Source: an uncultured Gammaproteobacteria bacterium
Lineage (GTDB): Bacteria; Patescibacteriota; Patescibacteriia; UBA10025; JAHIVO01
Direction: 5' to 3'
DNA length: 64,000 bases
NCBI GenBank assembly: GCA_964415025.1
Contig: CAYPXF010000005.1
Span: 1,484-65,483 of the forward strand
Shown here: in pieces, positions 8,401 through 28,901 of the stretch
Position numbering within the stretch: position 1 is the stretch's first letter
Layout: each line of letters starts with the position of its first letter
Notes under the pieces: generated by a model
The model's input: the letters and a program-made list of their open reading frames with translations, nothing else
Database searches by the model: none
What the model was told of the DNA's origin: nothing
Position numbers and translations under genes: made by a program

Positions 8401-9305
8401 CGCATGTGTGGATTAAGCATGGGGGTAGGAATGATGATGCCGGTAGTATTGAGTGTAATGATGGCATAGACAATGACGGGGTAGGACATTGCGATATCTC
8501 GCCGTACGCGGTATGTACGAGCGACGCGGAATGTACTCCTGGTACCTGTGACTTCACTGATCAGGATGATGACCGTGGCGGCTGGTGTGAAAACACTTTT
8601 GATTTACATGAAGGATCGCGGTGCAATGATGATCAGGATAATGACCAGGATGGTACATGCGATCATGATGGGTGCAATGGATTGCCGGCAGATCTTGATT
8701 GTACTGATGAATTTTCTGATGCCGAGGGCAATCCTGAATGCAGCGACGGCTGGGATAATAACGGCGACGGACTGTGCGACTATGACGGCGCTGTCGGCGC
8801 TCCCGGGTGCAGCGGTAAGCCAGATCCGGGCTGTTCGAGCGCGAGTGATGCTAGCGAGGCAATACCTTCGACGCATTCAGCGCATTTAACGCGCATAATA
8901 CCGGCGACTGGAGCAGTGGTTGAGAGTCTGTATTATGATCGCTATACCCAAGTTTCAAATCATTTAGTATATGATGGCAGCAAAATCTGGATCGGAGATG
9001 GTAGTACCACGAGCCGTGAAACAGTGCATAGTTATTATGCCGGCACTGGACTGCGGACTGATTTGTCAGATACTGTCGTGCGGCAGGGCAGTTTTCCGGG
9101 CACGGCACAGATCGGACTGGCCAGCTACCATGGCTCACTGACTGTGGATACTGCCCTGGAGGTAATCGGCGATCTGGTCGTGACTACCAATATTTGGGGC
9201 GGTACTGCTGACGATGTGAAGGCGTTTGGCACGGCCTGTGATGACGGCCAGTTTATAAAAGGGATTGACACCACCAGCGGCCAATCCCAATGCCGACCAT
9301 TATAA
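5433..9305 (+). CDS. giant surface protein paralog B (1290 aa): same N-terminal module, FDG.Y.W beta-propeller repeats, Ca-binding Cys/Asp (TSP3-like) repeat region, C-terminal two-Cys module ending QCRPL
   Basis: starts 12 nt after paralog A stop; N-terminal TM; motifs NMFAPLDV..QAKRGRLLLDP, GIYG/GIYA repeats, SWAGYF; CNDGIDNDGVGHCD...CSDGWDNNGDGLCDYDG repeats; C-terminal NIWGGTADDV...C..GQFIKGI...QCRPL. Confidence 0.8.
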   Translation: MKHFVTSYNRRILLPIGLLVIVLALVGTVKITYAAWEEPQAEPPDDNMFAPLDVSDNNQAKRGRLLLDPLYNPLGAIPEIDYPLEVRGPRDVYINKLEIVAEGDLSVDTDTLVVDGTGHMVGMGTGSPDELLDIRGYGATLGSDSQLISGNALVVTDVGKYGAYGLSQGDSIASVLGESDSGSGIYGLHTAGGTGIMAQSESASAVRGTVSAAAGSPVAAGIYAQAQGLGSWAGYFAQRVYGTQEVVGSTFLPTALPYSSIPYSVGWKTQDIAQSYVPAFSSIAFDGRYLWINNYTAYWSQAPYIHKIDAYTGEQVEAFKVSGAEHAYNSPGMGTMDYAGGYIWMANPYKDNEGIYRIDPHSQDYDTTLYSVGTHDADGDGNTDDGESDGPFDFIYDDITYPDNTFVWVVSDYEDNAAASRYYITRLQPAADEYGFCSDPSQLTQAGCTGTWYDDLSELDFSGATCPVCVNCTGTTTTEPCSVPGYYTEAECTNPSVGGAWDPDANFGYAELRYPSGITFDGTKIWVSFAGGGAYASGLVSFDAADPVNTATTHCAGPNRNLQTIDWGSGMLWAGDKQRENEVVRLFAIDPAADPLYLGIDDYGSFGSELGSGTISILAYDEKSAGGPYLWVINPFHFAKFSINPVTKTLAPAHVYSLYNSGYNFAFAENEAGERTVWTTHGNVGGIIEHLVDTSVALPGNSPYAPYYQRAFLPVGASVGGMVFDSTYIWTADRNTNKLSKFNIADGSKMGDYDAGWYPLGIVYDGRYIWTVNSDEYGYKPNTNDLTKFDPVNGEIVDEYKITNYNGEMDIARGGYIDMRFDGQYIWITFPDSDEIAVFDPDTIDTSGVTFYDDTDHGIDNPYRLVYDGESMWVSHIDNKISRVQSDGTNAFTRTFDIIDGGVAYNISALEFDGTYLWIGTKFMDTQGRSVYKYDPAGDVIVDEFTVYNDSGICLAGERQYQYCRSDADCPSSTCDAKGSRVTDILFDGTHVWIKHGGRNDDAGSIECNDGIDNDGVGHCDISPYAVCTSDAECTPGTCDFTDQDDDRGGWCENTFDLHEGSRCNDDQDNDQDGTCDHDGCNGLPADLDCTDEFSDAEGNPECSDGWDNNGDGLCDYDGAVGAPGCSGKPDPGCSSASDASEAIPSTHSAHLTRIIPATGAVVESLYYDRYTQVSNHLVYDGSKIWIGDGSTTSRETVHSYYAGTGLRTDLSDTVVRQGSFPGTAQIGLASYHGSLTVDTALEVIGDLVVTTNIWGGTADDVKAFGTACDDGQFIKGIDTTSGQSQCRPL

Positions 9306-11795: not shown

Positions 11796-11800
11796 TTTCC

Positions 11801-14800
11801 ATGGACCAATCAATACGACACAATAATACTTTTTCTAAAATTGTTTTCGCATTATTAAGCATTGCCAGCCTAATAGTGGTTATCGGCCTGCTCTATATTG
11901 TCATGGCCGGTCAGACGCAGGACGCGACTGAAACAGATCCGGAAACAGTACTGGATCCTGCCCTGGCCCAGGAGGTGCGCAATTATGAAATCGTGGACAA
12001 TGGCGACGGTACGCATTCAGCATTGTACGGTGTGGGGCCGATCCAGTATTTGACAAACAATCCGGGCGAGTACGCGGCTATTGATTCGACTATTGTCGAG
12101 TCAGCGCGCGAGGGCGTGGCCTATGAAAATACTACTAATGTTATCAACACCTTTTTCGGCAGTGATGTCACTGATCCGAACTTTATTTCCTACCAAATAC
12201 CGGGTGAGCGCGGCGTCGGTTTTACGTTTCCTGATGCCCAGCAGTCTGCCTGGGCCGTAGCAGAAAATGTAGCCACCTATCCGGAGCTGTATCCGGGCAT
12301 GGACGCGCGGTATACTATCCAAAACGATGTCATGCTGGAGGAATTGATAGTAGACAATAAGGAAGACGCCAGTAATTTTCACCGGCTTGACCAACAGGTC
12401 ACTCTGCATGACGTGTATTTCCGCGAGCAGGATGACGGCTCAATCACGTTCCATGATGCTGATACCAGGCACGCCGTGTTCGTCATACCCCGGCCGGTGC
12501 TGTATGAAGACGGCGATACATTGCGCCAGAACGCGAACTACGGACTGCATTTTGAGATATCGCGAACAGACACTGACACGTATTTAATTTCGAAAGTTAT
12601 TGACGACGGAGGGAAAGAGTGGCTCGAAAAAGCTGACTACCCTATAATTATAGATAATACGTATATTGGTGGATTTAATGCGGCTGTTGGCTCGACTAAG
12701 CGGTATAAGAGAATCGGCGGCGCGAGCTGGTCCTGGAGTATCATGATGGATTCTGGTATATATGGGTACCCTTTTATTACTACAGGAAAATACACAAACG
12801 GCTGTTCATTAGGAAACAGTAGTTGTATACAACATGAATATCATGGACATTATACTTTTCATACGTATGACGTAGGTGCGCCCTATACCCAGGATCAGGT
12901 CGTGGGGGCTCGGTTCCAGGTGTCTATGGTAAGGAGTGATGACGATGGCGAGTATCTCGCTCCGGTGAATGTATATTCTGGGGCAAACGCATGGGATCCA
13001 AATAAATCATTTAGTGAATCTTTTACTGCGGCGGAAATTGAAGACCGCTGGAATGCACTCACCAGCATGCATCAGGAAGTAGATATAGATACTGCCGGAC
13101 TGCCAACCTATACTAATCGCGGGATGTGCTATCCTGGCAGTTCTCCGGAGCAGTGTCGGCGGGTAGTGGACATAGACCTAAATTCTATTGGTATGACCAG
13201 CAGTCAGGATCATACTCAGATAATGTTGGATGCACCATCAGCCTCGTACCTTAATTGTGGGGGGTCAAGCTGTAATGATTTTCATGGAGTTATTAGCTGG
13301 CGGCCAGTATCATCTACTGATATGCCGTATCCTAAGCTGGAGGTGATTTACTATCCTGATCCGACGATCCGTGTGGACCCCATGGCTATTCCTGAGGGTG
13401 AGAAGAAAATGGAAATTCAGATAGATGATGATTTTACGGATGATAGTAGCTACAAATTGGAGCGCTCATTTGACGGGTCAGGCGGACCGTGGACCGAGGT
13501 GTGCAGTAATATTGCTACCGGCGCGAGCGGGACGTGCCAGTCAGGCATCACCTATGACTGTACCGGCATTACCGAGGCAGGCACGTCCGGATACTGTACC
13601 GTGACGGACGATATCAGCGTGTCAGGCGGCGGACCGCGGTATTCTGACAAGCATACCTGGTACCGAGCACGAGTGGTGGGAACATCAGGCTATGTATCTG
13701 ACTATAGCCCGGTGGCGCATGATTATACGTTTGCTTATCCCTATCCAGAGGCTCCGCCAAATTCTGACAGCAGCGAAAGCTGGGATAAAATTAAAATTTG
13801 GGCACCTGGGAGCGGTAATGAATACTCAAACCAGGGTTCATTCTTAACTATTGACCCAGAGCCGACAAAGTATTGCATGGCGACATATACTCCCTCTATG
13901 CTTGGGTGGTACAATCCTCCAACAAACGATTGGCGGTATCATCATCATTCATCAGCAGCGTATTCTGATGTTTGGAACGAATATTCAGAAGGCACATATG
14001 ATGGACGTGATTATATTAATAACAATGACGGCGATAATCTTGCCTGCAAAACAATGGCTCAGTGGATATACTTTGGCGGGTATCCTTATTATAGCATTGG
14101 CGAAGTAGAGGATAGTTATCGTTTACGGCCAAATACATATTATGCTTTTTCCTTTTTATCGCAAAATACCCGTGATGGCACTGTAAATTCCCCTATTGTT
14201 ATGCCGGAGTATGCGCAAACCAGGGCGCGGGTACCGTCTAAACCAATCCAGAATAATGGCATAACAACGCAAAACGCACTGGGATTGGCGCTCGACAGCA
14301 CGCCACAGTATGCCCCGACAGAGTACGTGAATGACCCTAATGGCAATACGACATATGCTATGTATGTCGAGGAACTTAACAGGTATTTTAACTCTGATAC
14401 TGGTACACTGTCATCGTCTGCCGTATGGCGGCGTGAATCTGACTGGGGCGGAGCAGGCGGTATTGCGTACGGTGGTTTTGCTCCGGGGACTTGCTACAGT
14501 ATCAAAGCAAAATCACGCAATGGTGCAAGTATAGAGGGGGAAACACCAGCCCGGATTTGGTCAGATACTGGCCAATACTGTACCAAAATGGCCGTACCTT
14601 CGTTATCCGTGGCTTGCCAATACACTGACGCGGATGACGACTATAATTGCGATATCACCCTGGATGCCAACGGTAATCCAGCCGGCACAGAATACAAGTT
14701 CGAATACTGTTTGCCGGAGAGCGGGAGTAATTGTTCTGCCGGATCTGGTGACTGGCAGGAAATACTCATAGGAGGCAAGGAGTGGAATTCGTATAACCAC

Positions 14801-17800
14801 GGCGATAGTATTAATGTATCTGAAAATACACCTGGATATTCATTTCTGAATTGTGAAGATGCCAACATGAAACAAATGTTCCGTGGCTATGCCAGACGGA
14901 ATAGTTCGTCACCAAGCACTGACCCATCTCCTGCTGCGGAAGACACATTGCCGCCATGCCAGCCGTGGAGTTTAGGCCATGCTAATAATCCTCAATATAG
15001 CAAAATCCAATGGCAATGGTGGGCACCGATTGCCGCTGATTATACTGGTAATCCTGTACATCACTATAATGTGTATGAACCTACATATCTAGCACGCCAT
15101 TGTGACGCGGGTAATGCGAGCGATCTGTACTGTGATAATCCGTTTGATGTGCAAATAGATGATTCGTGCTCCGGGCCGTTTTGCTTATTCTCGTATACCC
15201 AGGAGCAATACCAGCGTATACCAAAGTTTGACAATAACACCCAGTACAGTACGAAGGTGCGCGCGGCAGACAGCCGGGGGCGCTCAGGCAGGCCTTCGGC
15301 AGAAGCATGGGCCTACACTGCTATTGAAACACCGACCGGTATTACCTTTGATGACGTACAGACTGATACGATCGCGCTTAATGGCGACGGGACGTTCAGT
15401 AATTTTTCGATCGGATCGACTGGACTGCAGTTTCAGGAAACCACGTCTCATAACGGCGGCGGTGCTGACAGCGGCGAACTTGGTTTTACGCCGTCCGGGT
15501 GGCTGTCTAACGGCCAAAGCACAACTGACAAAGGACTGGACCAAAATACGAAATACTGCTACCAGGTGCGGGCCCGCAATGCCGAGGGGCACCTGTCGGG
15601 GCCGGGAGATATTACCGGTTTTGTGCCGGCTAGTGCGGAATGCCGGTATACGCTGGCAGGGACGCCGAACATGCCTATCCTGGAGCGTATTGACGGCGAA
15701 ACAATTAATATTACGGTACGTGATACTGATGATAATCCGCACGGCTCGCCAACTGATAATGGCGGAGAGACTCAATATGCCCTGTGTATCACAAAATTCG
15801 ATGATGATAATGTGGTAGAATTCGAAAAATACGTCCGGCCGGACGGGACGATAGATTACGCCGGCGTTGACTGCGCATCTGGAAACGGTACTGGCTATTG
15901 GCAGTCATACGACGGCTGGGGCAATACGGCCGGAGTGACTATCGGTAGTCTAGAAGCGTCCGCCCGGTATGATTTTAAATTCAAGGCGCGCAACGGCGAC
16001 CATATAGAAAACGGCGCTGACAGTTCTGGCTGTACTGCTAATGAGACCTGCATTGAAACAACGTTTGGCCCGGAAGCGACACTGTTCCTGGTGAAGAATA
16101 ACGTAGTCGGCTGGGCCTGGTCGTCTAATAGCGGCTGGATATCGCTGAACTGCCTGAACCAATTTTACGCGGGCGACCAGTACAGCTGTGACAGCGCTGA
16201 TGACTGGGGGCTGAATACTGATTTTGTCGAGGGACGGGACGTGAATCCGATCGAGGGCTATGCCTGGTCTGCGTCCGGACGCGCCATAGACAAAGTATGG
16301 ACAGGCAGCAATATATTAGTAGACTATGCCCTACCGAGCCGCGTACAGCACAGTGCGCGTGCCGGCTCTTTTATCTGGGCTACGGCCGGTGATGCCTTGT
16401 TGCGCATTGACGCGGCCAGTGGCGTGGAATACACGTGCGTCGGCAGTGCCGAGCTGTCTAATGACTGGGAACGCTGTACTTTTGGTGATGATTTGCGCGA
16501 TATAGTCTATGATGGCACCTACCTGTGGGTCAGCTCGTATAATGACAGCATTATCTACCAGGTCAATCCGGTCGACGGCACTGTTGCCGCGGTCGACAGC
16601 GGTTCGATACAGCTCCAGGGGCTGACTACTACACCGCAGGGCATAACATATGACGGTACCTACCTGTGGGTGACTGATCCGACCAATGACCGCGTGCTAC
16701 AGGTCGATCCAGCGGCCGGCAGTGAGGTAGATCAAATTGATGTCGGGGACCAGCCTCAGTATCCGTATTATGACGGTAAATACATATGGGTGGCCAACGC
16801 CGGTGAGACACACAGCGGCCAGGTTTCGCGGATTAGTGTTGCGGATAACACGGTGACATCGATCGATCTTAGCAATGATAACGCGTATGATATTAGTTCA
16901 GATAACGAACATATTTGGATCAGTCATGCGAATACGGAGGTGATAACTATTATTTCTCCGGATGGTTCTGATCAAGCTACTATTAATACCGATGGAGCCG
17001 ATTCCCGTGGTATAGCCTATGCTGATGGCTATATATGGGCGGCTGATCAGGACGCAGATACGATATACCAGATCGATATAGTAAGCAGGGATGTGGTCGC
17101 CGAGCATGAGGTCGGCGGGAATTATGATCCACTGCATATGAGTATTGATGACGCATATATCTGGGCCAGTACGGACGACGGTGAGGTCGGCGGACAGTAT
17201 ATAGCGCTGCAGCGGCTCGAAACCGGTGTATCACCGGATAAGGTCGGCCTGGGCTGGCTGACATACTCGCGCGGCGTCTGCTCTGATAACGCGCAAAAAC
17301 CATGCGACCCTGACCGTAATACCTGCGGCGGTACAGCTACCTGTGAGCCAGCAGCCGGACTGCCGCCAGACAGTACGGCCTATGGCTACTGCTATACAGA
17401 CGGCACGCCAGATGAACGGTACGGATTATGCTCTGTCAATACGGGTGCTGTCTGTACCGACAGCATTGCCTGCCCTGATCCAGAGGAGACGTGTATTTAT
17501 CACACATGCCAGACCGGTGATACCTGTCCGGATTATGGTAGCGGAACAGAGGTATGTGTGGCTATGGCAACCACGAATTTTGACGGGTTAACACGCGAAG
17601 TACGGGGCTATGGCCGCTCGCTGACCATGGCGCAGCGCGGCGCGGCGCTCGGCTTCGATGACTGGGGCTGGATCAGTATGGACGGCACGTATACAGACGA
17701 AGCCGATGCAGTGGCGCGCTACGGCGTTACCGCCACTGACGTGGATTCACAGCTGTTTCTGGGCGATCCTGACGTCAATCCAGACGACGTCATCCTGTAC

Positions 17801-20800
17801 AGCCTATTTGGCTGGGGCTGGAATGCGGAGGTGTCTGATTTTGGGCCGGTATCAACCTGGTTAAATCCGCTTAATGTCAGCAATACGAAAAAAGTAAACC
17901 ATAGTGCCGGTTGGCCGGTTACTGAATCCAGTATTGCCATCGACAGTACTGGTAATCCTCATATTGCCTGGTCACAGTTCAATGAAAATTCTGGATTTAA
18001 TGATATATACCATGTGCGACTGATCGGCGGGCAATGGCAAATGATGGATGGCTCCGTATACCAGCCTGGCGTTAGTGAACCGATTGTGAGTACAGTCACT
18101 AATTCTGGGATGCCGTCTTTAGCGGTCGACAGCAGTAATATTCCGCATCTGGTATGGCAAGAGCAGGAAGGGACCGAGGCTGATATCAGCGGTGGAGAAT
18201 TACAATACTCTACGTGGAACAGCGAAACAAACACCTGGACTGCTATGCAGCAGATAGAAACATCCGGACCCAGCTGTGGCGGCGCTTCACTTGTCATAGA
18301 TGAAGCAAACCGTCCGCATGTAGCATACCGTGTCCATTCGTATGATGATTCTGAAATTTATTATCGTTATTTTAATGGCAGTGACTGGGTAACAGCGAGC
18401 GGTGATACTGGCACAACAGACATAAATGTTAGTAACACGGGATCGCCACATTCGTACCAGCCGCGCTTGGTTTTAAGTGATGAAACAACACAGCGGCCAC
18501 ATATAGTATGGAGAGAACAGGTCGGCGCCGAATATCACATTTATTACCGGCATTGGGACGGCAATGACTGGGTAACAGCGAGCGGTAATACTGGTGATAC
18601 TGACGTATCGGTTAATGGAGACCTTGGCACGGTGTTAGGCATATCGATTGAGGGCGCAAATCCAGACATAGTCCTGTATGCTGATAACCGTCCTGGTATT
18701 ATATGGCGGGATCCGGGCATGGTGCTGTACCGCCAGTGGAATGGCAGTGCCTGGGTAGACGCTAATCCTGACGACGGGGATACTGATGATGATATATGGA
18801 TAAATATTCATGAGGGCAGTGATGTGGAGCACTTGGCGCATTCAGGTAAAACACCGCGGGTTGCTATAGATAGTGATGATCAGCCGCATGTGGTATGGGG
18901 CGATTATCCGTCAGGCGGCGACAGTAGCGGTGATATCAGATACCGCTGGTGGAATGCAAGCGCCGAGGCGGGCAATGGCGCTTGGGTTACCTCGTCCGGA
19001 GATTATACTGTCAGCGGGTCTCATTTTGATGATGATTCGCTGACTATCCATGAATCGCCAAATATAGGCTCGACACTGCCGGATTTTACCATGGATGCTT
19101 TAGGCAACCCTCATGTAATATGGCAAGATGTCCGGTATAAGCTGAATGATGACGCAGCAGAATGTGCGGCAAATGGTGATATTAATTGTATCTGTTCGAG
19201 CCATGCTGATTGCGGCGATCCTGATTATCCGTTTTGCATGACACGAAGTCCGGATAAATACTGCGGTGCTGCTGATGTTAAATACGCTGGCTGGCTGCCC
19301 GGTCGAGTACGCTCGGGTATTGGCTGGGTAGAGTTTATGCCGGTCGGCGCGCTAATCGGCGTGCCCTGGGTACAGACCCTGTACAGCGATATCTATGCCC
19401 AGGAAAATATCGGCCTGGCACCGCCGCCGCGCGGCACGGGTACGTACACGGCCACGTATTTGATCCTGGCCAACGGTGATATCCAGGGTATTCCCAGCTA
19501 TTATACCAGCTCGCAGACTGGCGAGCCGACCAGCGGGTATTATGAACCGGGTCTGGAATCCTTGATCGAGGACGCAGGGTATCCGGTCGGCCGCGACGCG
19601 CTGTCCCAGATCGATGTTGATAATTTGATTGCCGCAAACGATGAGAATAATGCGTACGGCAATCTGGTGCATAATTATGATAATTCCGGCTCGAGCAGTG
19701 TTAATATCAGCCCAGACTTGACTAGCGGACCGCTAAACGGGGAGGTATTCTATTTCCATGATGCAGACAATGGCCTGTATCAAGTCAACGATATTATCCG
19801 CTTTAACAAAGGCGAAAGCCAGATTAACCAGACAGCCGGACACGGTTTAGTAATAATAGACGGCGATCTGGAGATTAATAGCCCAATATATTATGAAAAG
19901 CGGTGTAACGGACTTGCCGGCGAGACAATATGCACGACTAATAACGAGTGTGACAGCGGCGAAGTATGCCGTGCTGTCGAGCTGGATGATGTCAGTGAAA
20001 TGCCGTCAGTAGCCTTTATCGTCCGCGGTAATATTTATGTAAATTCCCAGGTCAATGAACTGGCCGGCGTGTATGTGGCTCTGGATCCTGATACGACTGA
20101 TGAGGTGGATAAAGGTATTATCTACACGAGTCGCAAAGCGCCAATAACACAAACAATCATTGCGAGCGAAGACGATACATCAGTAGACAGTGCGTATACG
20201 AATAGCTCAAGTGCGGACACAGTTTCGTTTGGTCAAAACAGTAGCATTGCCCAGCGCGGGTTCCTGCGCTGGCAGCTCAATGTTCCTGCTGGCGCAGAGA
20301 TACGCAACGCCTACCTGCGCCTGTACGGCGACGGTAATGGTAATGCTACGGATTTCCGGGCCCGTATCTATTTATTAGATACTGCCAACGCTGAACAAGT
20401 ATCGAATGACTTTACCGCTAATCCTAACCAAAGTTTGTTTGACGCTGATACATCGAACAGCGTCAGCTATGATATCAATGAAGATACCTGGGATACTGGC
20501 GGCTGGAATACCAGTCCGGATATTTCCGCGCTGGTGCAGAAATTCGTGAATGAGCCGACGTATGAATCAGGTAATTATATCGGTATAGAATTACGTGAAG
20601 AGGCCGGCGTCGACGGCTGGCGCGGTTTTGAGGCGTATGATGCGGTTGCTGCAAACTATGCTGAATTAGTGGTCGAATATTCGCCGCGGCGGACAGTGTA
20701 CTCTTTAGCAGATATAGACGGTGATGACGCACCGGATGAGCAGAGCGATTACGCGGCCTGGGGCACTGGTTCGGGCACATGTGATCAAAATGATGATGAT

Positions 20801-21490
20801 ACTACCCGGGGGCCTTGTGTATATAACCCATTAATAAATAGGTTTGGATTTGGCTCATACAGTTTGACAACTGATGCGAGCCGGATATTTTTCCACTTTG
20901 GTCCGTATGATTCGGACTATAGCACCATACCTGAACAGGCAGAAATTCTGGAATCTCATGTTGTCGTGAGCCCGTATTCAGGTGGAGATGCCGGATTCCA
21001 GGCGCGGCAGGGTTTGCTAGACTCGGCCATAGCCGATTTTGCGGGCTTTACTGATAATCCGTATGAATTGACGATGTCACCGGAAGTATCTGAAATCGCT
21101 GAAGAAATAACAGATTCATGGGACAGTTTGAGCATCTTTTCATTTGCTGACACCAGCCGGCTGATCCAGGCCTGGGTAGATTTAGAAGACTATACCGCCG
21201 GTGATGATATTGGCATCAGACTGCGCAAAGGCAGAAATGAGCAGATCTATGAAAATGAAGCCAGCAGGACTATACAGACCGGGCAGTCACGGCTCGAAGT
21301 CGACTATCTGACCCCGTTGCGTGTGTCAGGATTGTTCGTGGCGCGCGGCTATAGCTTTGACCGGAAGTATACTAAGGACCTTGCTGCCAGTGAGCAGATC
21401 TTGTATGATGGGAGAGTAGTGGCCAATACGCCGCCCGGCTTGTCAGACTTTACACGGGCGCTTCCGGTATACGCGCGAGTAACACCGTAA
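11801..21490 (+). CDS. giant membrane-anchored mosaic surface protein (~3229 aa): FN3-like domains, FDG/YDGTYLW beta-propeller, seven tandem ~45-aa PH[IV].W repeats, C-terminal triplicated DNRLRE-like/carbohydrate-binding-like domains
   Basis: single 9.7-kb ORF; ATG at 11801 is 6 nt after paralog C stop (the ORF track opens it at an overlapping TTG at 11780); N-terminal TM (IVFALLSIASLIVVIGLLYIVMAG); many Cys-rich and Asp-rich segments. Confidence 0.8.
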   Translation: MDQSIRHNNTFSKIVFALLSIASLIVVIGLLYIVMAGQTQDATETDPETVLDPALAQEVRNYEIVDNGDGTHSALYGVGPIQYLTNNPGEYAAIDSTIVESAREGVAYENTTNVINTFFGSDVTDPNFISYQIPGERGVGFTFPDAQQSAWAVAENVATYPELYPGMDARYTIQNDVMLEELIVDNKEDASNFHRLDQQVTLHDVYFREQDDGSITFHDADTRHAVFVIPRPVLYEDGDTLRQNANYGLHFEISRTDTDTYLISKVIDDGGKEWLEKADYPIIIDNTYIGGFNAAVGSTKRYKRIGGASWSWSIMMDSGIYGYPFITTGKYTNGCSLGNSSCIQHEYHGHYTFHTYDVGAPYTQDQVVGARFQVSMVRSDDDGEYLAPVNVYSGANAWDPNKSFSESFTAAEIEDRWNALTSMHQEVDIDTAGLPTYTNRGMCYPGSSPEQCRRVVDIDLNSIGMTSSQDHTQIMLDAPSASYLNCGGSSCNDFHGVISWRPVSSTDMPYPKLEVIYYPDPTIRVDPMAIPEGEKKMEIQIDDDFTDDSSYKLERSFDGSGGPWTEVCSNIATGASGTCQSGITYDCTGITEAGTSGYCTVTDDISVSGGGPRYSDKHTWYRARVVGTSGYVSDYSPVAHDYTFAYPYPEAPPNSDSSESWDKIKIWAPGSGNEYSNQGSFLTIDPEPTKYCMATYTPSMLGWYNPPTNDWRYHHHSSAAYSDVWNEYSEGTYDGRDYINNNDGDNLACKTMAQWIYFGGYPYYSIGEVEDSYRLRPNTYYAFSFLSQNTRDGTVNSPIVMPEYAQTRARVPSKPIQNNGITTQNALGLALDSTPQYAPTEYVNDPNGNTTYAMYVEELNRYFNSDTGTLSSSAVWRRESDWGGAGGIAYGGFAPGTCYSIKAKSRNGASIEGETPARIWSDTGQYCTKMAVPSLSVACQYTDADDDYNCDITLDANGNPAGTEYKFEYCLPESGSNCSAGSGDWQEILIGGKEWNSYNHGDSINVSENTPGYSFLNCEDANMKQMFRGYARRNSSSPSTDPSPAAEDTLPPCQPWSLGHANNPQYSKIQWQWWAPIAADYTGNPVHHYNVYEPTYLARHCDAGNASDLYCDNPFDVQIDDSCSGPFCLFSYTQEQYQRIPKFDNNTQYSTKVRAADSRGRSGRPSAEAWAYTAIETPTGITFDDVQTDTIALNGDGTFSNFSIGSTGLQFQETTSHNGGGADSGELGFTPSGWLSNGQSTTDKGLDQNTKYCYQVRARNAEGHLSGPGDITGFVPASAECRYTLAGTPNMPILERIDGETINITVRDTDDNPHGSPTDNGGETQYALCITKFDDDNVVEFEKYVRPDGTIDYAGVDCASGNGTGYWQSYDGWGNTAGVTIGSLEASARYDFKFKARNGDHIENGADSSGCTANETCIETTFGPEATLFLVKNNVVGWAWSSNSGWISLNCLNQFYAGDQYSCDSADDWGLNTDFVEGRDVNPIEGYAWSASGRAIDKVWTGSNILVDYALPSRVQHSARAGSFIWATAGDALLRIDAASGVEYTCVGSAELSNDWERCTFGDDLRDIVYDGTYLWVSSYNDSIIYQVNPVDGTVAAVDSGSIQLQGLTTTPQGITYDGTYLWVTDPTNDRVLQVDPAAGSEVDQIDVGDQPQYPYYDGKYIWVANAGETHSGQVSRISVADNTVTSIDLSNDNAYDISSDNEHIWISHANTEVITIISPDGSDQATINTDGADSRGIAYADGYIWAADQDADTIYQIDIVSRDVVAEHEVGGNYDPLHMSIDDAYIWASTDDGEVGGQYIALQRLETGVSPDKVGLGWLTYSRGVCSDNAQKPCDPDRNTCGGTATCEPAAGLPPDSTAYGYCYTDGTPDERYGLCSVNTGAVCTDSIACPDPEETCIYHTCQTGDTCPDYGSGTEVCVAMATTNFDGLTREVRGYGRSLTMAQRGAALGFDDWGWISMDGTYTDEADAVARYGVTATDVDSQLFLGDPDVNPDDVILYSLFGWGWNAEVSDFGPVSTWLNPLNVSNTKKVNHSAGWPVTESSIAIDSTGNPHIAWSQFNENSGFNDIYHVRLIGGQWQMMDGSVYQPGVSEPIVSTVTNSGMPSLAVDSSNIPHLVWQEQEGTEADISGGELQYSTWNSETNTWTAMQQIETSGPSCGGASLVIDEANRPHVAYRVHSYDDSEIYYRYFNGSDWVTASGDTGTTDINVSNTGSPHSYQPRLVLSDETTQRPHIVWREQVGAEYHIYYRHWDGNDWVTASGNTGDTDVSVNGDLGTVLGISIEGANPDIVLYADNRPGIIWRDPGMVLYRQWNGSAWVDANPDDGDTDDDIWINIHEGSDVEHLAHSGKTPRVAIDSDDQPHVVWGDYPSGGDSSGDIRYRWWNASAEAGNGAWVTSSGDYTVSGSHFDDDSLTIHESPNIGSTLPDFTMDALGNPHVIWQDVRYKLNDDAAECAANGDINCICSSHADCGDPDYPFCMTRSPDKYCGAADVKYAGWLPGRVRSGIGWVEFMPVGALIGVPWVQTLYSDIYAQENIGLAPPPRGTGTYTATYLILANGDIQGIPSYYTSSQTGEPTSGYYEPGLESLIEDAGYPVGRDALSQIDVDNLIAANDENNAYGNLVHNYDNSGSSSVNISPDLTSGPLNGEVFYFHDADNGLYQVNDIIRFNKGESQINQTAGHGLVIIDGDLEINSPIYYEKRCNGLAGETICTTNNECDSGEVCRAVELDDVSEMPSVAFIVRGNIYVNSQVNELAGVYVALDPDTTDEVDKGIIYTSRKAPITQTIIASEDDTSVDSAYTNSSSADTVSFGQNSSIAQRGFLRWQLNVPAGAEIRNAYLRLYGDGNGNATDFRARIYLLDTANAEQVSNDFTANPNQSLFDADTSNSVSYDINEDTWDTGGWNTSPDISALVQKFVNEPTYESGNYIGIELREEAGVDGWRGFEAYDAVAANYAELVVEYSPRRTVYSLADIDGDDAPDEQSDYAAWGTGSGTCDQNDDDTTRGPCVYNPLINRFGFGSYSLTTDASRIFFHFGPYDSDYSTIPEQAEILESHVVVSPYSGGDAGFQARQGLLDSAIADFAGFTDNPYELTMSPEVSEIAEEITDSWDSLSIFSFADTSRLIQAWVDLEDYTAGDDIGIRLRKGRNEQIYENEASRTIQTGQSRLEVDYLTPLRVSGLFVARGYSFDRKYTKDLAASEQILYDGRVVANTPPGLSDFTRALPVYARVTP

Positions 21491-21656: not shown

Positions 21657-22811
21657 ATGGCAAAACCAACAAGTTATCTGGGTGTTGATCTAGGAGGATC
21701 CAGCCTAAAAATCGTCGAGCTCAAAAGCGTCAATAACAGACCGCAGCTGGTTACCTATGGTCTGATAGACGAGACATATAATATTATCAAGGATGACAGC
21801 GCGTCAGCCCGCGCCGAAGTAGCCCGGCATTTGAAAGAGCTGACGAAGAGTTCGCGTGTTTCGACTGATAAAGTGGTTTCAGCATTACCGAGCTATAGCG
21901 TCTTCAGCTCTATCATCAGCCTGCCGGCCATGAGCAAAAAAGAGTTGATATCAGCAGTGCGCTGGGAAGCCAAGAAATTCGTGCCTATTCCACTCGAAGA
22001 AATGATCCTGGATTGGGAAGTGCTGGAACAGGGAGAATCAGCGGAAGACACGCGCGGAGAACAAGCCGCCGAAGACGCGCACGATGACGAAGCAGAGGAA
22101 AAAGCCGCAGAAGAAGATTCAGACAAAGATCAAAAAAAGAAAAAACCATCAATGTCATCCGGTGACAAGAAATCGATAAAAGTGTTACTAACTGCCGCAC
22201 CAAAAAATTTAGTAAACCGCTATGTTGAGGTGTTTAAGCAAGTAGACCTCCAGCTGGTCGGATTAGAGACTGAATCGTTTGCCCTGGAGCGATGCCTAAT
22301 AGGCAATGATTCTTCTCCTATCATGATTATTGATATCGGCAACAACGCTACAAGTATTATAATATTCAGCGGCGGTGTTCCAATTCTGAATCGCAGTATT
22401 GATGTTGGAGGTGCCAGTATTTCTAATAAGCTCGTAGAAGTAATGGGGCTAAACCAGGAGCAGGCAGAGCAATATAAACGTGATATGGGCACTAGCATGG
22501 CCGGTCAAAAAATCAGCGATTTACCACAGCCTGTTGCCCATGTTGTTAATTCAGTGATTAATGAAATCCGCTATATATTGAATATTTATCAAAACCAAAA
22601 CCGCCAGCATATTAAAAAAATTATTTTAACCGGCGGGTCGGCATTTTTAGCTAACCTTACAGAAAATATAGAAGATGTGTTTAATATAAAGTCATTTGTC
22701 GGTGATCCATGGGCCAGGGTAGTGCATCCAGTGGAAATTGACGGATTGCTAAAGGGCCTAGGACCGAGAATGTCTGTCAGTATTGGCCTAGCCATGAGAG
22801 AAATCAGCTAA
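21657..22811 (+). CDS. pilM: type IV pilus assembly ATPase-fold protein PilM
   Basis: 384 aa; N-terminus MAKPTSYLGVDLGGSSLKIVEL (actin-like PilM/FtsA fold) with an acidic low-complexity insertion. Confidence 0.8.
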   Translation: MAKPTSYLGVDLGGSSLKIVELKSVNNRPQLVTYGLIDETYNIIKDDSASARAEVARHLKELTKSSRVSTDKVVSALPSYSVFSSIISLPAMSKKELISAVRWEAKKFVPIPLEEMILDWEVLEQGESAEDTRGEQAAEDAHDDEAEEKAAEEDSDKDQKKKKPSMSSGDKKSIKVLLTAAPKNLVNRYVEVFKQVDLQLVGLETESFALERCLIGNDSSPIMIIDIGNNATSIIIFSGGVPILNRSIDVGGASISNKLVEVMGLNQEQAEQYKRDMGTSMAGQKISDLPQPVAHVVNSVINEIRYILNIYQNQNRQHIKKIILTGGSAFLANLTENIEDVFNIKSFVGDPWARVVHPVEIDGLLKGLGPRMSVSIGLAMREIS

Positions 22812-22846
22812 ATATTGACAAAATAGTAAATATATACCATAAAAAG

Positions 22847-22870
22847 AGTTTGCATGCGCAAACTTTTTTT
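22847..22870 (+). terminator. rho-independent terminator after pilM
   Basis: AGTTTGC-atgc-GCAAACT hairpin followed by TTTTTTT. Confidence 0.6.
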
Positions 22871-22915
22871 AGTTTACGAATACAATTAAAGTAAGGATAA
22901 AAAACTTAAAAAACC

Positions 22916-22944
22916 TTGACTTTGGCTAAAAAATATGCTAAAAT
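22916..22944 (+). promoter_or_regulatory. sigma70-like promoter for the pilN operon (TTGACT-17 nt-TAAAAT)
   Basis: near-consensus -35/-10 hexamers with 17-nt spacer, 160 nt upstream of the pilN ATG. Confidence 0.55.
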
Positions 22945-23046
22945 ATAGATATATTGCTCAAATATTGGCATAATGCTTGGCATATGTATGACCAAGGATT
23001 GTACTATATATAAAACAAAAATTATCCCGAATTAGCTAAAAATCAC

Positions 23047-23062
23047 CACAAATATATTTGTG
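23047..23062. promoter_or_regulatory. perfect 16-bp palindrome CACAAATATATTTGTG in the pilN 5' UTR (candidate operator)
   Basis: exact dyad symmetry 42 nt upstream of the pilN start. Confidence 0.35.
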
Positions 23063-23103
23063 ATTAATCAAATATAATTCGTGGAAAAAACAAAAATTAG
23101 GTT

Positions 23104-24975
23104 ATGTCAATTAACCTGCTTCCTGAACAGGAAAAATCAAAAATAAAACCTACCAATAAGGCGTCAGTTACCCAAATAGAGATGACCGGACCGCGCCAAG
23201 GAGGAAACAAAAAACCGGCTGCTAAAGAGTCAGGTGTTTTGACATTTTTTAAACAGGCGTTTACTAAGCCAGGTGCACCGCAAACGGATGAAAAAAAGTT
23301 TCCGGAAAAAAAGGTCAGGATTATGGAACGTCCTGCCAAAAAAGCGGCCCATAAGCCAGAAACACAAAAGCAACCAGAACAAAATAAAAAGGTAGTCTAT
23401 ATTAAGCCGAGCGACGAAGGCATGCAGGCAGATAAAAGCAAAGGCATACTGGAAAAAGTATTAGACTTTTTCCGGAGTTTGTTTTCCGCAGGGACACCCC
23501 GCAATCAGCCTGCTGAGAAATCAGCCGCAGTCCCGGAGCCAAAAGAGGAATTCCCAACATATAAACCAATCACAACCAAACAAGTATCTGACAGCAATCA
23601 TGTCGATACTTCACAAGATAAGATAATCGAAGTAACAACTTCATATCAATCTGACGATGAGCAGGCAGCCAAGCCGGCGGCAGTTCCAGCTGACGTGCGC
23701 GAGGAAATGCCAGGCGCGCAACCGATAGTACGGCCGACGCGCACAAGCACACCAGCGCAGCCGATCCAGCAGCCGGAGGATAAGCATGAAAAAGAAACAA
23801 TAGAATTAGAGCGTACCGACCAGCCAGTTCCACGGGACAGACAATACACCGATCAGCAATCCAAAACCGTAGCAGAAAAAAAACCTGACACAGACAGACA
23901 AAACGCACTGATACGCTGGCTGCAGGGCGTGCTGCAGACTATTAAGAATCTATTTACCCGGGAGAAAAAGCCGGTGTCCTCCCCACCGCCGACAGAGCGA
24001 GGACGGGAAGCTGATAGCGACCAGCTGCCGAAGATCAGCCTAGAAAAAAGCACTGAAAATATTCACATTCCCGAAGCAGCCGATCGGAAAACAGCCTTAG
24101 ATGATTTACCGCCCCCTCCATCGCCTCCTGCAGAGGATACATCAGAGGCGGCAGCCGCAACACCTGCCGCGGAACTACAAAAAAAATCAGTACCCGACGA
24201 CATCGATCCGTCACCGGCTCCTGTTTTAGAAAGCGAAATAGATGCCGCGCCCCAGCCGACTGAGCTATCACGGCCTGCGGCGAGTATAAAACCCGGGAAG
24301 CACCCGCCGAAAAAAGAAAAAAAAGACAATGAGATAGCAATGACCAGTCCCCAGGAGCAGGAAGTGAAGCCAGCACTGCAGTGGGAGGTTAATCTCATCC
24401 CCGAGGATGCGGTCGAGGTGCGCATACCGGTGAGCCGTTATTTATATCTGGCGCTGGTCGGTATTGTCTGCGCCGGGCTGGTATTCGGCGGGTGGATAGC
24501 CGCCAACTGGTATTACAACAACATCACCACTGATATCAGTGAAGTTAATACACAGATTTCATCAGTAGAAATTCAGATAAATCAAAAAAAGAACGTTGTT
24601 GAACAGGTCCAGTACATAAACCAGCAGGCAGAACATGTCGCCAGCCTGATAGACGAACACGTGTACTGGTCGCCGTTGTTTACAAAAATCGAAAGCTATG
24701 TTGCGCCAGAGGTGTATTTCACCAGCATGAACGCCGATGTTAATGGCGTGGTTACCCTGACTGCTGTCGGTGAAAATTATGAGGCCGCTGTCAAACAGCT
24801 CTATGTGCTGGAACGCGCTGCTGACTTTGTCCAGCAGGCCAGTGTCGAGAATATATCCTTTGTCAGCGAGGGCGCTGCTATGGATACAGAAACGCAAGCA
24901 TCGGTTATTGTCGACCGTCCCGTCAATTTTTCGATCAAGCTAACAGTCGATCCGTTACTTTTTTCCCATCAATAA
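23104..24975 (+). CDS. pilN: PilN-like pilus assembly protein with ~430-aa Pro/Lys/Glu-rich disordered insertion
   Basis: 623 aa; N-terminal MSINLLPEQEK (the conserved PilN INLLP PilM-binding motif); long low-complexity region; single TM (YLYLALVGIVCAGLVFGGWIAANWYY); ~170-aa C-terminal periplasmic domain. Confidence 0.7.
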   Translation: MSINLLPEQEKSKIKPTNKASVTQIEMTGPRQGGNKKPAAKESGVLTFFKQAFTKPGAPQTDEKKFPEKKVRIMERPAKKAAHKPETQKQPEQNKKVVYIKPSDEGMQADKSKGILEKVLDFFRSLFSAGTPRNQPAEKSAAVPEPKEEFPTYKPITTKQVSDSNHVDTSQDKIIEVTTSYQSDDEQAAKPAAVPADVREEMPGAQPIVRPTRTSTPAQPIQQPEDKHEKETIELERTDQPVPRDRQYTDQQSKTVAEKKPDTDRQNALIRWLQGVLQTIKNLFTREKKPVSSPPPTERGREADSDQLPKISLEKSTENIHIPEAADRKTALDDLPPPPSPPAEDTSEAAAATPAAELQKKSVPDDIDPSPAPVLESEIDAAPQPTELSRPAASIKPGKHPPKKEKKDNEIAMTSPQEQEVKPALQWEVNLIPEDAVEVRIPVSRYLYLALVGIVCAGLVFGGWIAANWYYNNITTDISEVNTQISSVEIQINQKKNVVEQVQYINQQAEHVASLIDEHVYWSPLFTKIESYVAPEVYFTSMNADVNGVVTLTAVGENYEAAVKQLYVLERAADFVQQASVENISFVSEGAAMDTETQASVIVDRPVNFSIKLTVDPLLFSHQ

Positions 24976-24976
24976 T

Positions 24977-25561
24977 ATGAAATTCGCTTCCGTAAAAACA
25001 AGCATTTCACTGTTCTTCAATAAATACTTTATTGCGGTATTGATTGGCGTCGGGATATTAGTCCTGGCCGCTGGGTATTTTATCTTTATCAGTGGGATCA
25101 TGGCAGATATCCAGCAGGCCGGCTCAAGCGATTTGGAGGGGCGGCATCAGGTCTTGAACGCCAAACAGCGGACACTGCGCAAGCTCGAATCTCTGGAACA
25201 GCGGCATAAGCAGGTGACCGCGGCAGAAGTGGAACGCCTGGAAAAATTTCTCCCCATGGAAGACGATATTCCGCTGGTGATGATAGAGATAAAGGAATTT
25301 ATCGAACAAAATGATCTAACAGTCGCCTCGCTCGAAAGCGGTCCGCTGATCACCGGCAGCGACAGCGTAGCGGCCGAGGCGGATCAGGGCATCCAGGCGC
25401 TGAATATTACGGTTGCTATCAGCGGCATTGACAGCTATGTCAAGCTAAAAGATTTTCTGGATCAGATGAGCACGACGCTGCCGATCCTGGAGCTGAAGTC
25501 ATTAGCATATGTTCCGGGTACTGATACCTACAGCCTCAACCTGACAACCTATTACCAATAA
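24977..25561 (+). CDS. pilO: PilO-like pilus assembly protein
   Basis: 194 aa; N-terminal TM, coiled-coil, then alpha/beta domain; positioned after pilN. Confidence 0.6.
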   Translation: MKFASVKTSISLFFNKYFIAVLIGVGILVLAAGYFIFISGIMADIQQAGSSDLEGRHQVLNAKQRTLRKLESLEQRHKQVTAAEVERLEKFLPMEDDIPLVMIEIKEFIEQNDLTVASLESGPLITGSDSVAAEADQGIQALNITVAISGIDSYVKLKDFLDQMSTTLPILELKSLAYVPGTDTYSLNLTTYYQ

Positions 25562-25568
25562 GCGCAGT

Positions 25569-26735
25569 ATGGCCACAATAGATAAAAACAAAAAATTCTC
25601 CAAACGAACCATTATACTATTGGCAGTGTTCAGCGTTCTCCTGGTCGGCGGCGGATATTATGCGTATACGGTACTGTTTGCCGCTGGTGATACGGAGGAT
25701 TTATTATTGTCAGACGGAGCAATAGTAGCGGAACAACGCGTGGTCGTGCCAGAGTTTGAAGGGGACTTACTGACCAATAAGCAGTTTTTACAGTTTCAGA
25801 AAAAAACACCGTCCCAGTTCAGCGAACAGCTGGATGTCACTGTCAGGCCAGCAGACGCTGTAACCGCGCCAGGCGTTATCACGGTGCATAATTCTGGATA
25901 TGGCGATGCGCTCTTTGTTTCATGGACTGCTCCGGCAACAGCGGCTGACGCATATATCGTCTACCGTTCCCAAAACGCTAACGGCGGCTATGCTCCGCGT
26001 GCCATGGTCACCGGAGAGGAAACGGGATATGTAGACACGGCAGTCCAGCCAGGCAATACGTATTACTATACAGTCCGGTCAGTGCGCTCTGAAGAAATGA
26101 ATCGAGTCAGCGGCGTCACCAGCGCATCATCACCGCAAACAGGCATTCAGGTATCTGCCAATCAGGATGAGGCCGCGCGAATCAGCGTTGATGATTCGCC
26201 AGAGATTGATGCCCGGGTAGTACTGCGGCTGCGCGATGGACAAGAAAAACTGGTGGCAGTGATGACAGAAGGTCAGCGGACTGCCTATGACACTGGCGGG
26301 CAAACGTCAGACTCGTATACGGTTATTTTCTATTCTATGTTTTCCATGTCACAGGCGGCTGCCAGTGCCAGCCAGACGGTTACGGATACTGTCTTGCCAG
26401 ATCCGCCGACTGATATCCGGGTGGCAGTGGATGAGGCGGGCGAAAGCGTGCTCATAACATGGCGCAATCCAGACAGCCCGGACTTTAGTTATATTCGTAT
26501 CTACCGCTCTACGGCAAAAGGGTCGCTCGGTACGCTGATCAATCCGGAATCGTATAATTTCATCGGATTGTACGACCGGGAAAACGATTACTATTATTAC
26601 CAGGATACAAATGTTGAGCAGAACGTGGTTTACTATTATACTGTAACCAGTGTTGATAAGGCGGGTAACCAATCCAGCACCGATCTGCTGACAGTGCCGT
26701 ACCGCGCTAATCCGTTTGAACCAATTGTTTTTTAG
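25569..26735 (+). CDS. membrane-anchored protein with two fibronectin type III-like domains (T4P-associated, PilP/PilQ position)
   Basis: 388 aa; N-terminal TM; two FN3-like segments (…WTAPATAADAYIVYRS…YYYTVRSV and …ITWRNPDSPDFSYIRIYRS…YYYTVTSVDKAGNQS). Confidence 0.6.
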   Translation: MATIDKNKKFSKRTIILLAVFSVLLVGGGYYAYTVLFAAGDTEDLLLSDGAIVAEQRVVVPEFEGDLLTNKQFLQFQKKTPSQFSEQLDVTVRPADAVTAPGVITVHNSGYGDALFVSWTAPATAADAYIVYRSQNANGGYAPRAMVTGEETGYVDTAVQPGNTYYYTVRSVRSEEMNRVSGVTSASSPQTGIQVSANQDEAARISVDDSPEIDARVVLRLRDGQEKLVAVMTEGQRTAYDTGGQTSDSYTVIFYSMFSMSQAAASASQTVTDTVLPDPPTDIRVAVDEAGESVLITWRNPDSPDFSYIRIYRSTAKGSLGTLINPESYNFIGLYDRENDYYYYQDTNVEQNVVYYYTVTSVDKAGNQSSTDLLTVPYRANPFEPIVF

Positions 26736-28511: not shown

Positions 28512-28901
28512 ATGAATAAACAGAAGCAAACAACGAAAATACTGGTCGTCGAGGATGATAAATTTCTCGCCGGTATGTATAACACAAAGCTGGATCTCGA
28601 AGGGTTTTCCGTCATCGTGGCTAATGACGGCGAAGAAGGATTACGACTGGCTGAATCTGAAAATCCGACGATTATCCTGCTCGACATCATTTTACCGAAA
28701 ATGAGCGGGTTTGATGTGCTCAAATCGCTCAAAAAAAACGAGCAAACAAAAAAGATTCCCGTGATTTTACTGACAAACCTAGGCCAGCGCGATGACGTGA
28801 ATAAAGGGCTTGAGCTGGGCGCTGAAGATTACCTGATCAAAGCGCATTTCATGCCGTCTGAAGTTGTCGAAAAAATAAAAAAACTGGCGGGCAAAAAATA
28901 G
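28512..28901 (+). CDS. stand-alone response-regulator receiver (CheY-like REC) protein embedded between pilB and pilC
   Basis: 129 aa; KILVVEDDKFLAGMY...LLDIILPKMSGFDVL...LLTNLGQRDDV...GAEDYLIKA; no output domain. Confidence 0.8.
   Translation: MNKQKQTTKILVVEDDKFLAGMYNTKLDLEGFSVIVANDGEEGLRLAESENPTIILLDIILPKMSGFDVLKSLKKNEQTKKIPVILLTNLGQRDDVNKGLELGAEDYLIKAHFMPSEVVEKIKKLAGKK

Follow-up and report, generated by a model that had tools for sequence, protein, structure and literature searches.

The type IV pilus locus of a 64,000-nucleotide stretch of metagenomic DNA (the window: contig CAYPXF010000005.1 of assembly GCA_964415025.1, positions 1,484 to 65,483 of the forward strand) raises the question of how PilM, a cytoplasmic component of the pilus machine, is connected to the membrane when its membrane partner PilN has an exceptionally long cytoplasmic tail. 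PilM is an FtsA-like ATPase that stays at the membrane by binding, in its IA-IC cleft, the short stretch of PilN that projects N-terminally into the cytoplasm (PMC7613929, PMC4471445). Canonical PilN has ~190-225 amino acids (aa), a ~30-aa cytoplasmic tail and one motif for PilM (PMC7613929; 225 aa for PilN of Myxococcus xanthus in 3jc8 and 189 aa in Saccharibacteria). The PilN-class gene of the window encodes 623 aa. The initial annotation described it as a PilN whose PilM-binding motif, at the extreme N-terminus, is separated from the membrane by a disordered insertion of ~430 aa. A further INLLP-type motif, overlooked in that reading, was found directly before the transmembrane (TM) helix (WEVNLIPEDAVEV, aa 427-439). 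The elements on which this finding rests are the following.

23104..24975, + strand: complete open reading frame (ORF) of the long-tailed PilN-class protein, 623 aa, ATG start, as called within the window; an identical 623-aa protein has already been deposited in public assemblies.
23110..23124, + strand: N-terminal INLLP motif (aa 3-7), the first motif of the PilM-binding type; invariant in the four closest homologues, present in the family consensus and alignable by hhalign with the internal motif.
24382..24414, + strand: internal, TM-proximal motif WEVNLIPEDAV (aa 427-437); W427-P433 is invariant in the closest homologues, and profile searches place the motif on residues 3-9 of PilN from M. 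xanthus (3jc8).
24439..24507, + strand: single TM helix (aa ~446-468), placed by hydropathy and lying within a helix predicted by AlphaFold2 at aa 443-517.

The protein opens with MSINLLP, followed by ~420 aa that are predicted to be disordered and have a high content of Pro, Lys, Glu and Gln. One TM helix, a coiled coil and a PilN/GspL-type ferredoxin-like domain make up the remainder, in this order. The TM helix is the sole strongly hydrophobic segment (Kyte-Doolittle; best 19-aa window at 449, score 2.26). The N-terminal motif lies ~438 aa away from it, at the far end of a cytoplasmic tail of ~445 aa. In contrast, the VNLIP core of the internal motif (aa 429-433) lies 17 aa before the TM helix, which is the canonical position in PilN, and it aligns with the Myxococcus protein in a match to residues 3-84. 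Because the second motif is found at this distance, the tail is bracketed by two motifs of the PilM-binding type, and the description of a single motif held off the membrane by a tether does not hold. PilM could thus still dock at the membrane, and the N-terminal motif would be an additional site rather than the sole one on a 430-aa tether.

The two motifs resemble each other closely. Across the family, the consensus of the N-terminal motif is M-[PA]-[DE]-INLLP-[DE]-E-L-R-x-K and that of the internal motif is [LFW]-[DE]-VNL[IVL]P-E-[ED]-L, and the profiles of the two match in register (hhalign probability 95.6 %, E 1.3e-8). The Pro residue was present in all internal motifs (115/115) versus 77/115 N-terminal motifs, where K, Q or G can take its place. 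When the N-terminal 60 aa alone were compared with the PDB sequences no match was obtained, and 22-column profiles of each motif retrieved only chance matches from the PDB (PDK2 with 'MKEINLLPD' and HAUS8 with 'VNLVPED'); motifs of this length carry too little information by themselves.

The initial annotation had recommended that the insertion be looked for in PilN orthologues of related genomes. When 1.84 billion cluster representatives were searched exhaustively with HMMER, a profile built from seven sequences had 4837 matches at E<=1e-3, including 457 at E<=1e-30. We inspected 154 sequences, namely the best 150 of these matches and four sequences from earlier homologue searches (P0006, P0007, P0010 and P0011), and scored a two-motif layout when an N-terminal [IV]N[LF]L was combined with an internal [VI]NL[ILVM]P located 14-25 aa before the TM helix. 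Both motifs were present in 115 of the 154, and many of the other 39 were fragments or had miscalled starts. The spacing from motif to motif ranged from 109 to 573 aa with a median of 197 (n=115); that of the window protein, 426 aa, falls in the upper 13 %. The two-motif layout is thus the rule, with variable spacing, in a large family of Patescibacteria. The named members of the family are from metagenome-assembled genomes of Patescibacteria, one of them labelled "Tfp pilus assembly protein PilN". In a relative from Saccharibacteria, PilN is canonical, with 189 aa and the single motif MSEINLLH, and both the short and the two-motif architectures therefore occur within the phylum. A profile of the N-terminal module alone retrieved only two short fragments from a set of 5.8 billion proteins, and no description of a two-motif PilN was found in the searchable literature. 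The nearest relative in the genome collection (L009; CAZJUO010000084.1, 50 % identity), on a contig of 4.7 kb, was deposited as 'uncultured Gammaproteobacteria bacterium'. This contig is probably mis-binned, because all other relatives are from Patescibacteria. On balance we favour the view that the gene in the window codes for PilN of a type IV pilus machine from Patescibacteria (Kerfeldbacteria-like).

The assignment to the PilN class, made in the initial annotation, was borne out by the gene order, the INLLP motif, the single TM helix, the coiled coil and the GspL/PilO-type fold of the outer domain. The features concerned are listed here.

21657..22811, + strand: pilM, encoding the presumed partner, 384 aa with a charged insert of ~46 aa; Pfam PilM_2 2.4e-41, TIGR01175 1e-56.
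24508..24654, + strand: extracytoplasmic long helix or coiled-coil segment (aa 469-517), predicted by AlphaFold2 and aligned with the coiled coil of PilN in 3jc8.
24670..24963, + strand: ferredoxin-like alpha-beta-beta-alpha-beta-beta domain (aa 523-620), predicted by AlphaFold2 with a predicted local distance difference test score (pLDDT) >90 and matched by Foldseek.
24977..25561, + strand: pilO-like gene, 194 aa; weak matches to Pfam PilO (1.5e-3) and NCBIfam GspM (3.6e-4), with its position kept in all related loci.

The genes are ordered pilM, the 623-aa ORF, the pilO-like gene, a gene for an immunoglobulin (Ig)/FN3-like membrane protein, pilB, a response regulator, pilC, pilins and the prepilin peptidase gene pilD. 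The start codon of the pilO-like gene lies one base past the stop codon of the 623-aa ORF, and the order pilM, long ORF, pilO was also found in related loci (L002, L003, L005, L006, L007 and L015). The PilM of the window is homologous to PilM of solved structure (3jc8, 3e-25; 2ych, 3e-24; also 5eox and 5eou). When profiles of the C-terminal 211 aa of the long protein were searched against the PDB sequences, M. xanthus PilN (3jc8) was the top match, with the internal motif, TM helix and coiled coil falling on PilN residues 3-85 (E 0.006 and 0.0046). The AlphaFold2 model of aa 413-623 had a pLDDT of 88.5 and consisted of a long helix (model residues 31-105) followed by an alpha-beta-beta-alpha-beta-beta arrangement, for which the best Foldseek matches in the PDB were the periplasmic domains of EpsL, PulL and XcpY (GspL) and of PilO (target-normalised TM-score 0.65-0.79). 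This fold class is the one described for PilN, PilO, GspL and GspM (PMC4471445). Pfam PilN (PF05137, IPR007813) was matched by 29 of 100 relatives (best 5.1e-6), and the only Pfam and NCBIfam hits of the window protein were sub-threshold noise (SdrG_C_C, Amuc_1101 and mycoplas_twoTM).

Compared with canonical type IVa PilN (M. xanthus, 3JC8; the T. thermophilus complex of PilM with a PilN peptide, 2YCH; P. aeruginosa PilM-PilN, 5EOU), the window protein has the same INLLP-type motif ~17 aa before a single TM helix, the same bitopic topology with coiled coil and ferredoxin-like domain, and the same placement between pilM and pilO. It differs in its ~445-aa tail, which is about 30 aa in the canonical protein, in the second, N-terminal motif and in the conserved islands and amphipathic helices described below. 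Position, motif, topology and fold therefore mark the 623-aa protein as a divergent PilN. Two other memberships were considered and rejected. The Amuc_1101 family of fused PilM-PilN proteins (NF045709) shows a weak local likeness of its PilN-like part to aa 426-553 (E 0.0043), but the score was 15.9 bits against a cut-off of 650 and the window protein has no PilM domain. GspL of type II secretion (EpsL, PulL, XcpY), which provides the best structural matches of the extracytoplasmic domain, joins the link from PilM to PilN within one polypeptide (PMC4471445). Its cytoplasmic part is a folded actin-like domain, whereas that of the window protein is predicted to be disordered, with short linear motifs and without any domain known to Pfam or NCBIfam, and is accompanied by a separate PilM.

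A long N-terminal region could also arise from an incorrect start, with the real PilN beginning at the internal Met413 and the 412 upstream codons not belonging to it. Gene callers had indeed shortened three close homologues, and Met413 followed by TSPQ...WEVNLIPE would give a canonical-looking PilN of 211 aa. We consider this explanation extremely improbable. The chance that the 412 codons preceding Met413 are open was P ~7e-9, and the other five frames hold 6-28 stops. The three 'short' relatives, found in a search with the C-terminal profile, were of 206-231 aa. In L003 the frame extends upstream to MAINLLP, giving 576 aa right behind pilM; in L001 it is open to the end of the contig (>502 aa); and in L004 a scaffold gap is its only interruption. 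The public 'short' homologues are thus gene-call artefacts. A word-index search yielded three full-length relatives (589-687 aa, 34-37 % identity), all with two motifs, and an orthologue of 691 aa is encoded in the same gene order on the complete Candidatus Kerfeldbacteria chromosome CP181398.1. Met413 is replaced by Leu in P0002 and P0004, which are among the closest homologues, and no conserved Met was found upstream of the internal motif in 133 relatives. In contrast, the N-terminal module INLLP...IEMTxP...FFKxxF is kept across the family, at the protein level in hundreds of relatives. These results support M1 as the start and translation of the long N-terminal region as part of PilN, both as originally proposed. 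An additional short isoform may also be made. Because gene callers cut the protein at an internal Met and call antisense ORFs inside the Pro-rich coding region (L002 661-966, - strand; L003 4061-4372, - strand; both spurious), long PilN is under-represented in databases. Public annotation begins the long PilN at an internal Met in P0005-P0007, the annotated start of P0003 lies too far upstream, and those of P0131 and P0143 lie inside the INLLP motif.

The spacer between pilM and pilN (22812-23103, 290 bp) is AT-rich, with a guanine-cytosine (GC) content of ~26-35 %. It contains a GC-rich palindrome (hairpin) followed by a T-run at 22847-22870 and an extended -10 promoter-like site, TTGACT-17-TAAAAT, at 22916-22944. 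These sequence features suggest that pilN begins its own transcription unit, and M1 would be the first start of this plausible unit, although such signals are weak evidence.

The composition of the tail was as the initial annotation had stated, and the strings that it quoted were located (MSINLLPEQEK at aa 1-11, PKEEFPTYKP at 146-155, PPPSPPAEDTSEAAAATPAAE at 337-357 and KKEKKDNE at 403-410). Residues 1-445 contain 12.4 % P, 11.0 % K, 9.9 % E, 9.2 % A and 7.0 % Q. The sum of P, K, E and Q in aa 8-428 was 41 %, compared with 17 % in the 30 other ORFs of the window and with a maximum of 28.5 % in 624 comparable background windows. The mean hydropathy of 0.378 is below the charge-hydropathy boundary of 0.415 and places the tail on the disordered side, and AlphaFold2, run with an alignment of 148 sequences, gave a pLDDT mostly <55 for aa 1-430 and >90 for aa 443-620. 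The long N-terminal region is therefore predicted to be disordered, as the initial annotation held. The term low-complexity was appropriate for the biased composition only: the sequence entropy was 3.56 bits versus 3.69 in the background, and Tandem Repeats Finder detected no DNA tandem repeats, which rules out a repeat-expansion artefact. The tail is compositionally biased, not repetitive.

Conserved elements were nevertheless found within the tail, so that it is not a plain disordered linker: it holds islands kept across the family and amphipathic helices rich in W, F, K and R. These elements are as follows.

23176..23193, + strand: conserved island IEMTGP (aa 25-30); the T/I/E/T/G/P columns are invariant in the closest homologues.
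23230..23268, + strand: helix A, a conserved hydrophobic and basic segment, SGVLTFFKQAFTK (aa 43-55); an island of the long subclade, with the family consensus gv..ffkrlF.kkkk.
23446..23487, + strand: predicted amphipathic helix B, ILEKVLDFFRSLFS (aa 115-128); hydrophobic moment (muH) 0.67, reached by 0.6 % of shuffles; AlphaFold2 helix at 115-127.
23890..23964, + strand: predicted amphipathic helix C with a basic tail, TDRQNALIRWLQGVLQTIKNLFTRE (aa 263-287); AlphaFold2 helix at 263-284, muH 0.61-0.72.
24331..24351, + strand: a further 'x-M-T-x-P' island, EIAMTSP (aa 410-416), of which T414 and P416 do not vary among the closest homologues.

The family consensus of the first ~60 aa reads INLLPdelr.KEkK......IemT.P.......gv..ffkrlF.kkkk. 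The [IF]E[LM]TxP island was present in 90 of 116 family members compared with ~6 in shuffles, and the island GVLTFFKQAF is likewise conserved. A long subclade comprises 21 full-length sequences of 576-747 aa, all of which have WEVNL[IV]P. Its conserved islands correspond to aa 2-7, 25-29, 43-55 and 68-71, whereas aa 72-425 were poorly alignable (similarity 0.30, compared with 0.61 in the C-terminal part). In the long subclade only, another island, of the form x-[LM]-T-[EQK]-P, was enriched ~15 aa ahead of the internal motif (16/29). In the window protein, I-x-M-T-x-P occurs twice (aa 24-30, nucleotides 23173-23193, and aa 410-416), which gives the mirror-like order INLLP, IEMTGP, variable tail, IAMTSP, VNLIP, TM helix.

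Within the tail, AlphaFold2 predicted nothing with confidence except helix C (pLDDT 73-83); the muH of aa 268-285 was reached by 0/2000 shuffles, and the motif of this helix, W..L....IKNLF-RKKKP, was seen again in homologues. Relatives contain one to four copies of a recurring motif that is roughly [SA]-W-x-[KR]-F-x-x-W-[FL]-[KR]-[KR]-[LI]-F-x-[KR]-K-K-K-P. In P0026 (735 aa), aa ~258-430 hold three to four modules with an almost identical amphipathic helix (LWLSKFLQSFKNLFKREKK and similar), which points to recent tandem duplication of helix-plus-linker units as the way in which the tail grows. The 115 two-motif proteins contained 55 strong amphipathic segments, compared with 20.9 +/- 5.3 in shuffles (shuffle maximum 38), and the number of segments increased with tail length (Spearman 0.52, p 3e-9). 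Helices B and C combine a high muH with an aromatic and aliphatic face and K/R flanks, as expected of in-plane membrane anchors, and their muH of 0.61-0.72 matches that computed for the membrane-targeting helix of E. coli FtsA (0.62). Judged from sequence, helices B and C would belong to the FtsA/MinD-type membrane-targeting class, which is a functional class and not a homology family. The membrane anchor of FtsA is an amphipathic helix at the C-terminus of FtsA itself (PMC7613929, PMC4471445). In that system the helix is on the ATPase, whereas here it is found one to four times on the bitopic partner; no sequence homology is claimed.

The reading that we favour, and hold to be somewhat better than an even bet, is that PilN is bivalent for PilM on a membrane-hugging leash that carries a second PilM docking site; the analysis shows the architecture with its conservation, the fold, the gene context and the predicted disorder, and we infer the binding, the membrane association and the stoichiometry. 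The C-terminal third has the build of a normal PilN, whose ferredoxin-like domain presumably pairs with the downstream PilO. The TM-proximal VNLIP would dock PilM at the membrane in the canonical manner, the amphipathic helices would hold the tail against the inner membrane face, and the N-terminal module would serve as the second docking site on this long membrane-bound leash. Such a PilN could capture a second PilM or cross-link neighbouring PilM-PilN units. The FtsN-FtsA pair offers a parallel, since FtsN is likewise bitopic and its cytoplasmic N-terminal peptide occupies the IA-IC cleft of the actin-like ATPase FtsA, as we suppose for the window protein and PilM. A looser parallel is ZipA, which has a TM anchor, a charged P/Q-rich disordered linker and a folded end domain that binds FtsZ. 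As an analogy only, both proteins combine a membrane anchor with a long cytoplasmic disordered linker of variable length that ends in an element for binding a cytoskeletal protein; unlike the window protein, ZipA is not known to have a second membrane-proximal site or amphipathic helices.

Several observations weigh against a bivalent, membrane-pinned PilN. Only one groove for PilN is known on PilM (PMC7613929), and the two motifs could therefore compete with each other instead of binding two PilM molecules. The laxer N-terminal motif may be weaker or have a different partner, and the confidence of the AlphaFold2 monomer was low at both motif regions. As for the membrane, helix A (muH 0.43) is not significantly amphipathic by itself, and at the strict threshold strong amphipathic helices are rare in the short-tailed members of the family (0.1 per protein), so that pinning to the membrane may be relevant to the long subclade alone. 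With respect to identity, the window protein falls below every Pfam and NCBIfam threshold for PilN, with no Pfam PilN match at E<=0.1.

Three other explanations were considered. In an intramolecular switch, both motifs would share the single PilM groove, and PilM would toggle between a membrane-tight and a loosely tethered state, thereby regulating the engagement with PilB or PilC. The close similarity of the motifs, which match in register, is consistent with this, as are the single pilM per locus, here and in relatives, and the one known PilN-binding cleft (PMC7613929); the additional conserved islands next to the N-terminal motif, IEMTxP and FFKxxF, point to a role beyond simple competition, and we regard the switch as unlikely. 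The passive spacer of the initial annotation, an entropic tether or bristle in which only the N-terminal motif binds PilM and keeps it far from the membrane, would fit the predicted disorder, the biased composition, the widely varying length and the weak conservation of aa 72-425. Against it, VNLIP is the most strictly conserved cytoplasmic element and occupies the canonical position, and amphipathic helices are well above the shuffle expectation; we give the passive spacer little credence. A different partner, such as another actin-like ATPase (e.g. FtsA or MreB) or a pilus component, might be bound by the N-terminal module in place of PilM, which would link or localise the machine. FtsA does bind the N-terminal peptide of the bitopic protein FtsN in an equivalent cleft (PMC7613929), and the N-terminal motif, but never the internal one, accepts K, Q or G in place of Pro. 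Its position and sequence are nonetheless those of a canonical PilN N-terminus (MSEINLLH in Saccharibacteria PilN) and the locus lacks a candidate partner gene, which makes this explanation highly doubtful as well.

The bivalent reading can be extended, although we think it improbable, to a multivalent two-dimensional scaffold. The membrane-pinned tail with its two motifs would cluster several PilM protomers at the membrane, or link PilM there to another actin-like protein such as FtsA, and would nucleate or position the pilus machine in ultrasmall Patescibacteria, which would do without secretin-driven outside-in assembly. The tail would grow by duplication of amphipathic-helix modules, tuning both reach and valency. 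If true, this would represent a lineage-wide mechanistic innovation in pilus assembly rather than a decoration.

In Patescibacteria, type IV pili rank with the best-conserved surface machines, and the episymbiotic lifestyle depends on them (PMC11623550). A PilN with two motifs of the PilM-docking type and helices of the membrane-binding type is conserved over thousands of sequences and annotated only as "hypothetical protein", which implies a different organisation of the PilM-PilN interface across much of the phylum. Novelty appears to lie in a widespread, unannotated two-motif PilN; it is, however, a modification of a known component, and its mechanism is proposed from sequence.

Other features of the locus were also recorded. 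The ~46-aa insert of PilM (aa ~128-173, EQGESAEDTRGEQAAEDAHDDEAEEKAAEEDSDKDQKKKKPSMSSGDKK) is highly charged and has no counterpart in M. xanthus PilM; similar inserts are present in the PilMs that adjoin long-tailed PilNs in L003, L015 and L016, and the insert may co-vary with the PilN tail. Directly upstream of pilM is a giant ORF of 3236 aa (11780-21490, + strand) with a TTG start and an N-terminal hydrophobic segment. The Kerfeldbacteria chromosome (L015 284-787) shares the conserved final ~60 aa of this ORF (…SGLFVARGYSFDRKYTKDLA…VYDGRVVANTPPGL…), and large ORFs lie upstream of pilM in every related locus, including L003, L005, L006 and L007, which suggests that a conserved giant surface protein is coupled to the pilus operon. 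Further upstream, the ORFs at 5433-9305 and 9312-11795 (+ strand; 1290 and 827 aa) had no Pfam match, and the ORF at 2587-5421 contains Kelch/Reg_prop repeats. On the other side of pilN, the 388-aa ORF that follows pilO (25569-26735, + strand) carries a TM segment at its N-terminus, and its sole Pfam matches are weak ones of the Ig/FN3-like kind. A counterpart of 299-317 aa occupies the same position in L001, L002, L004 and L015, and the ORF may encode a lineage-specific component of the alignment complex. Finally, a receiver-only response regulator (28512-28901, + strand) lies between pilB and pilC, a position that is kept in L002 and L006.

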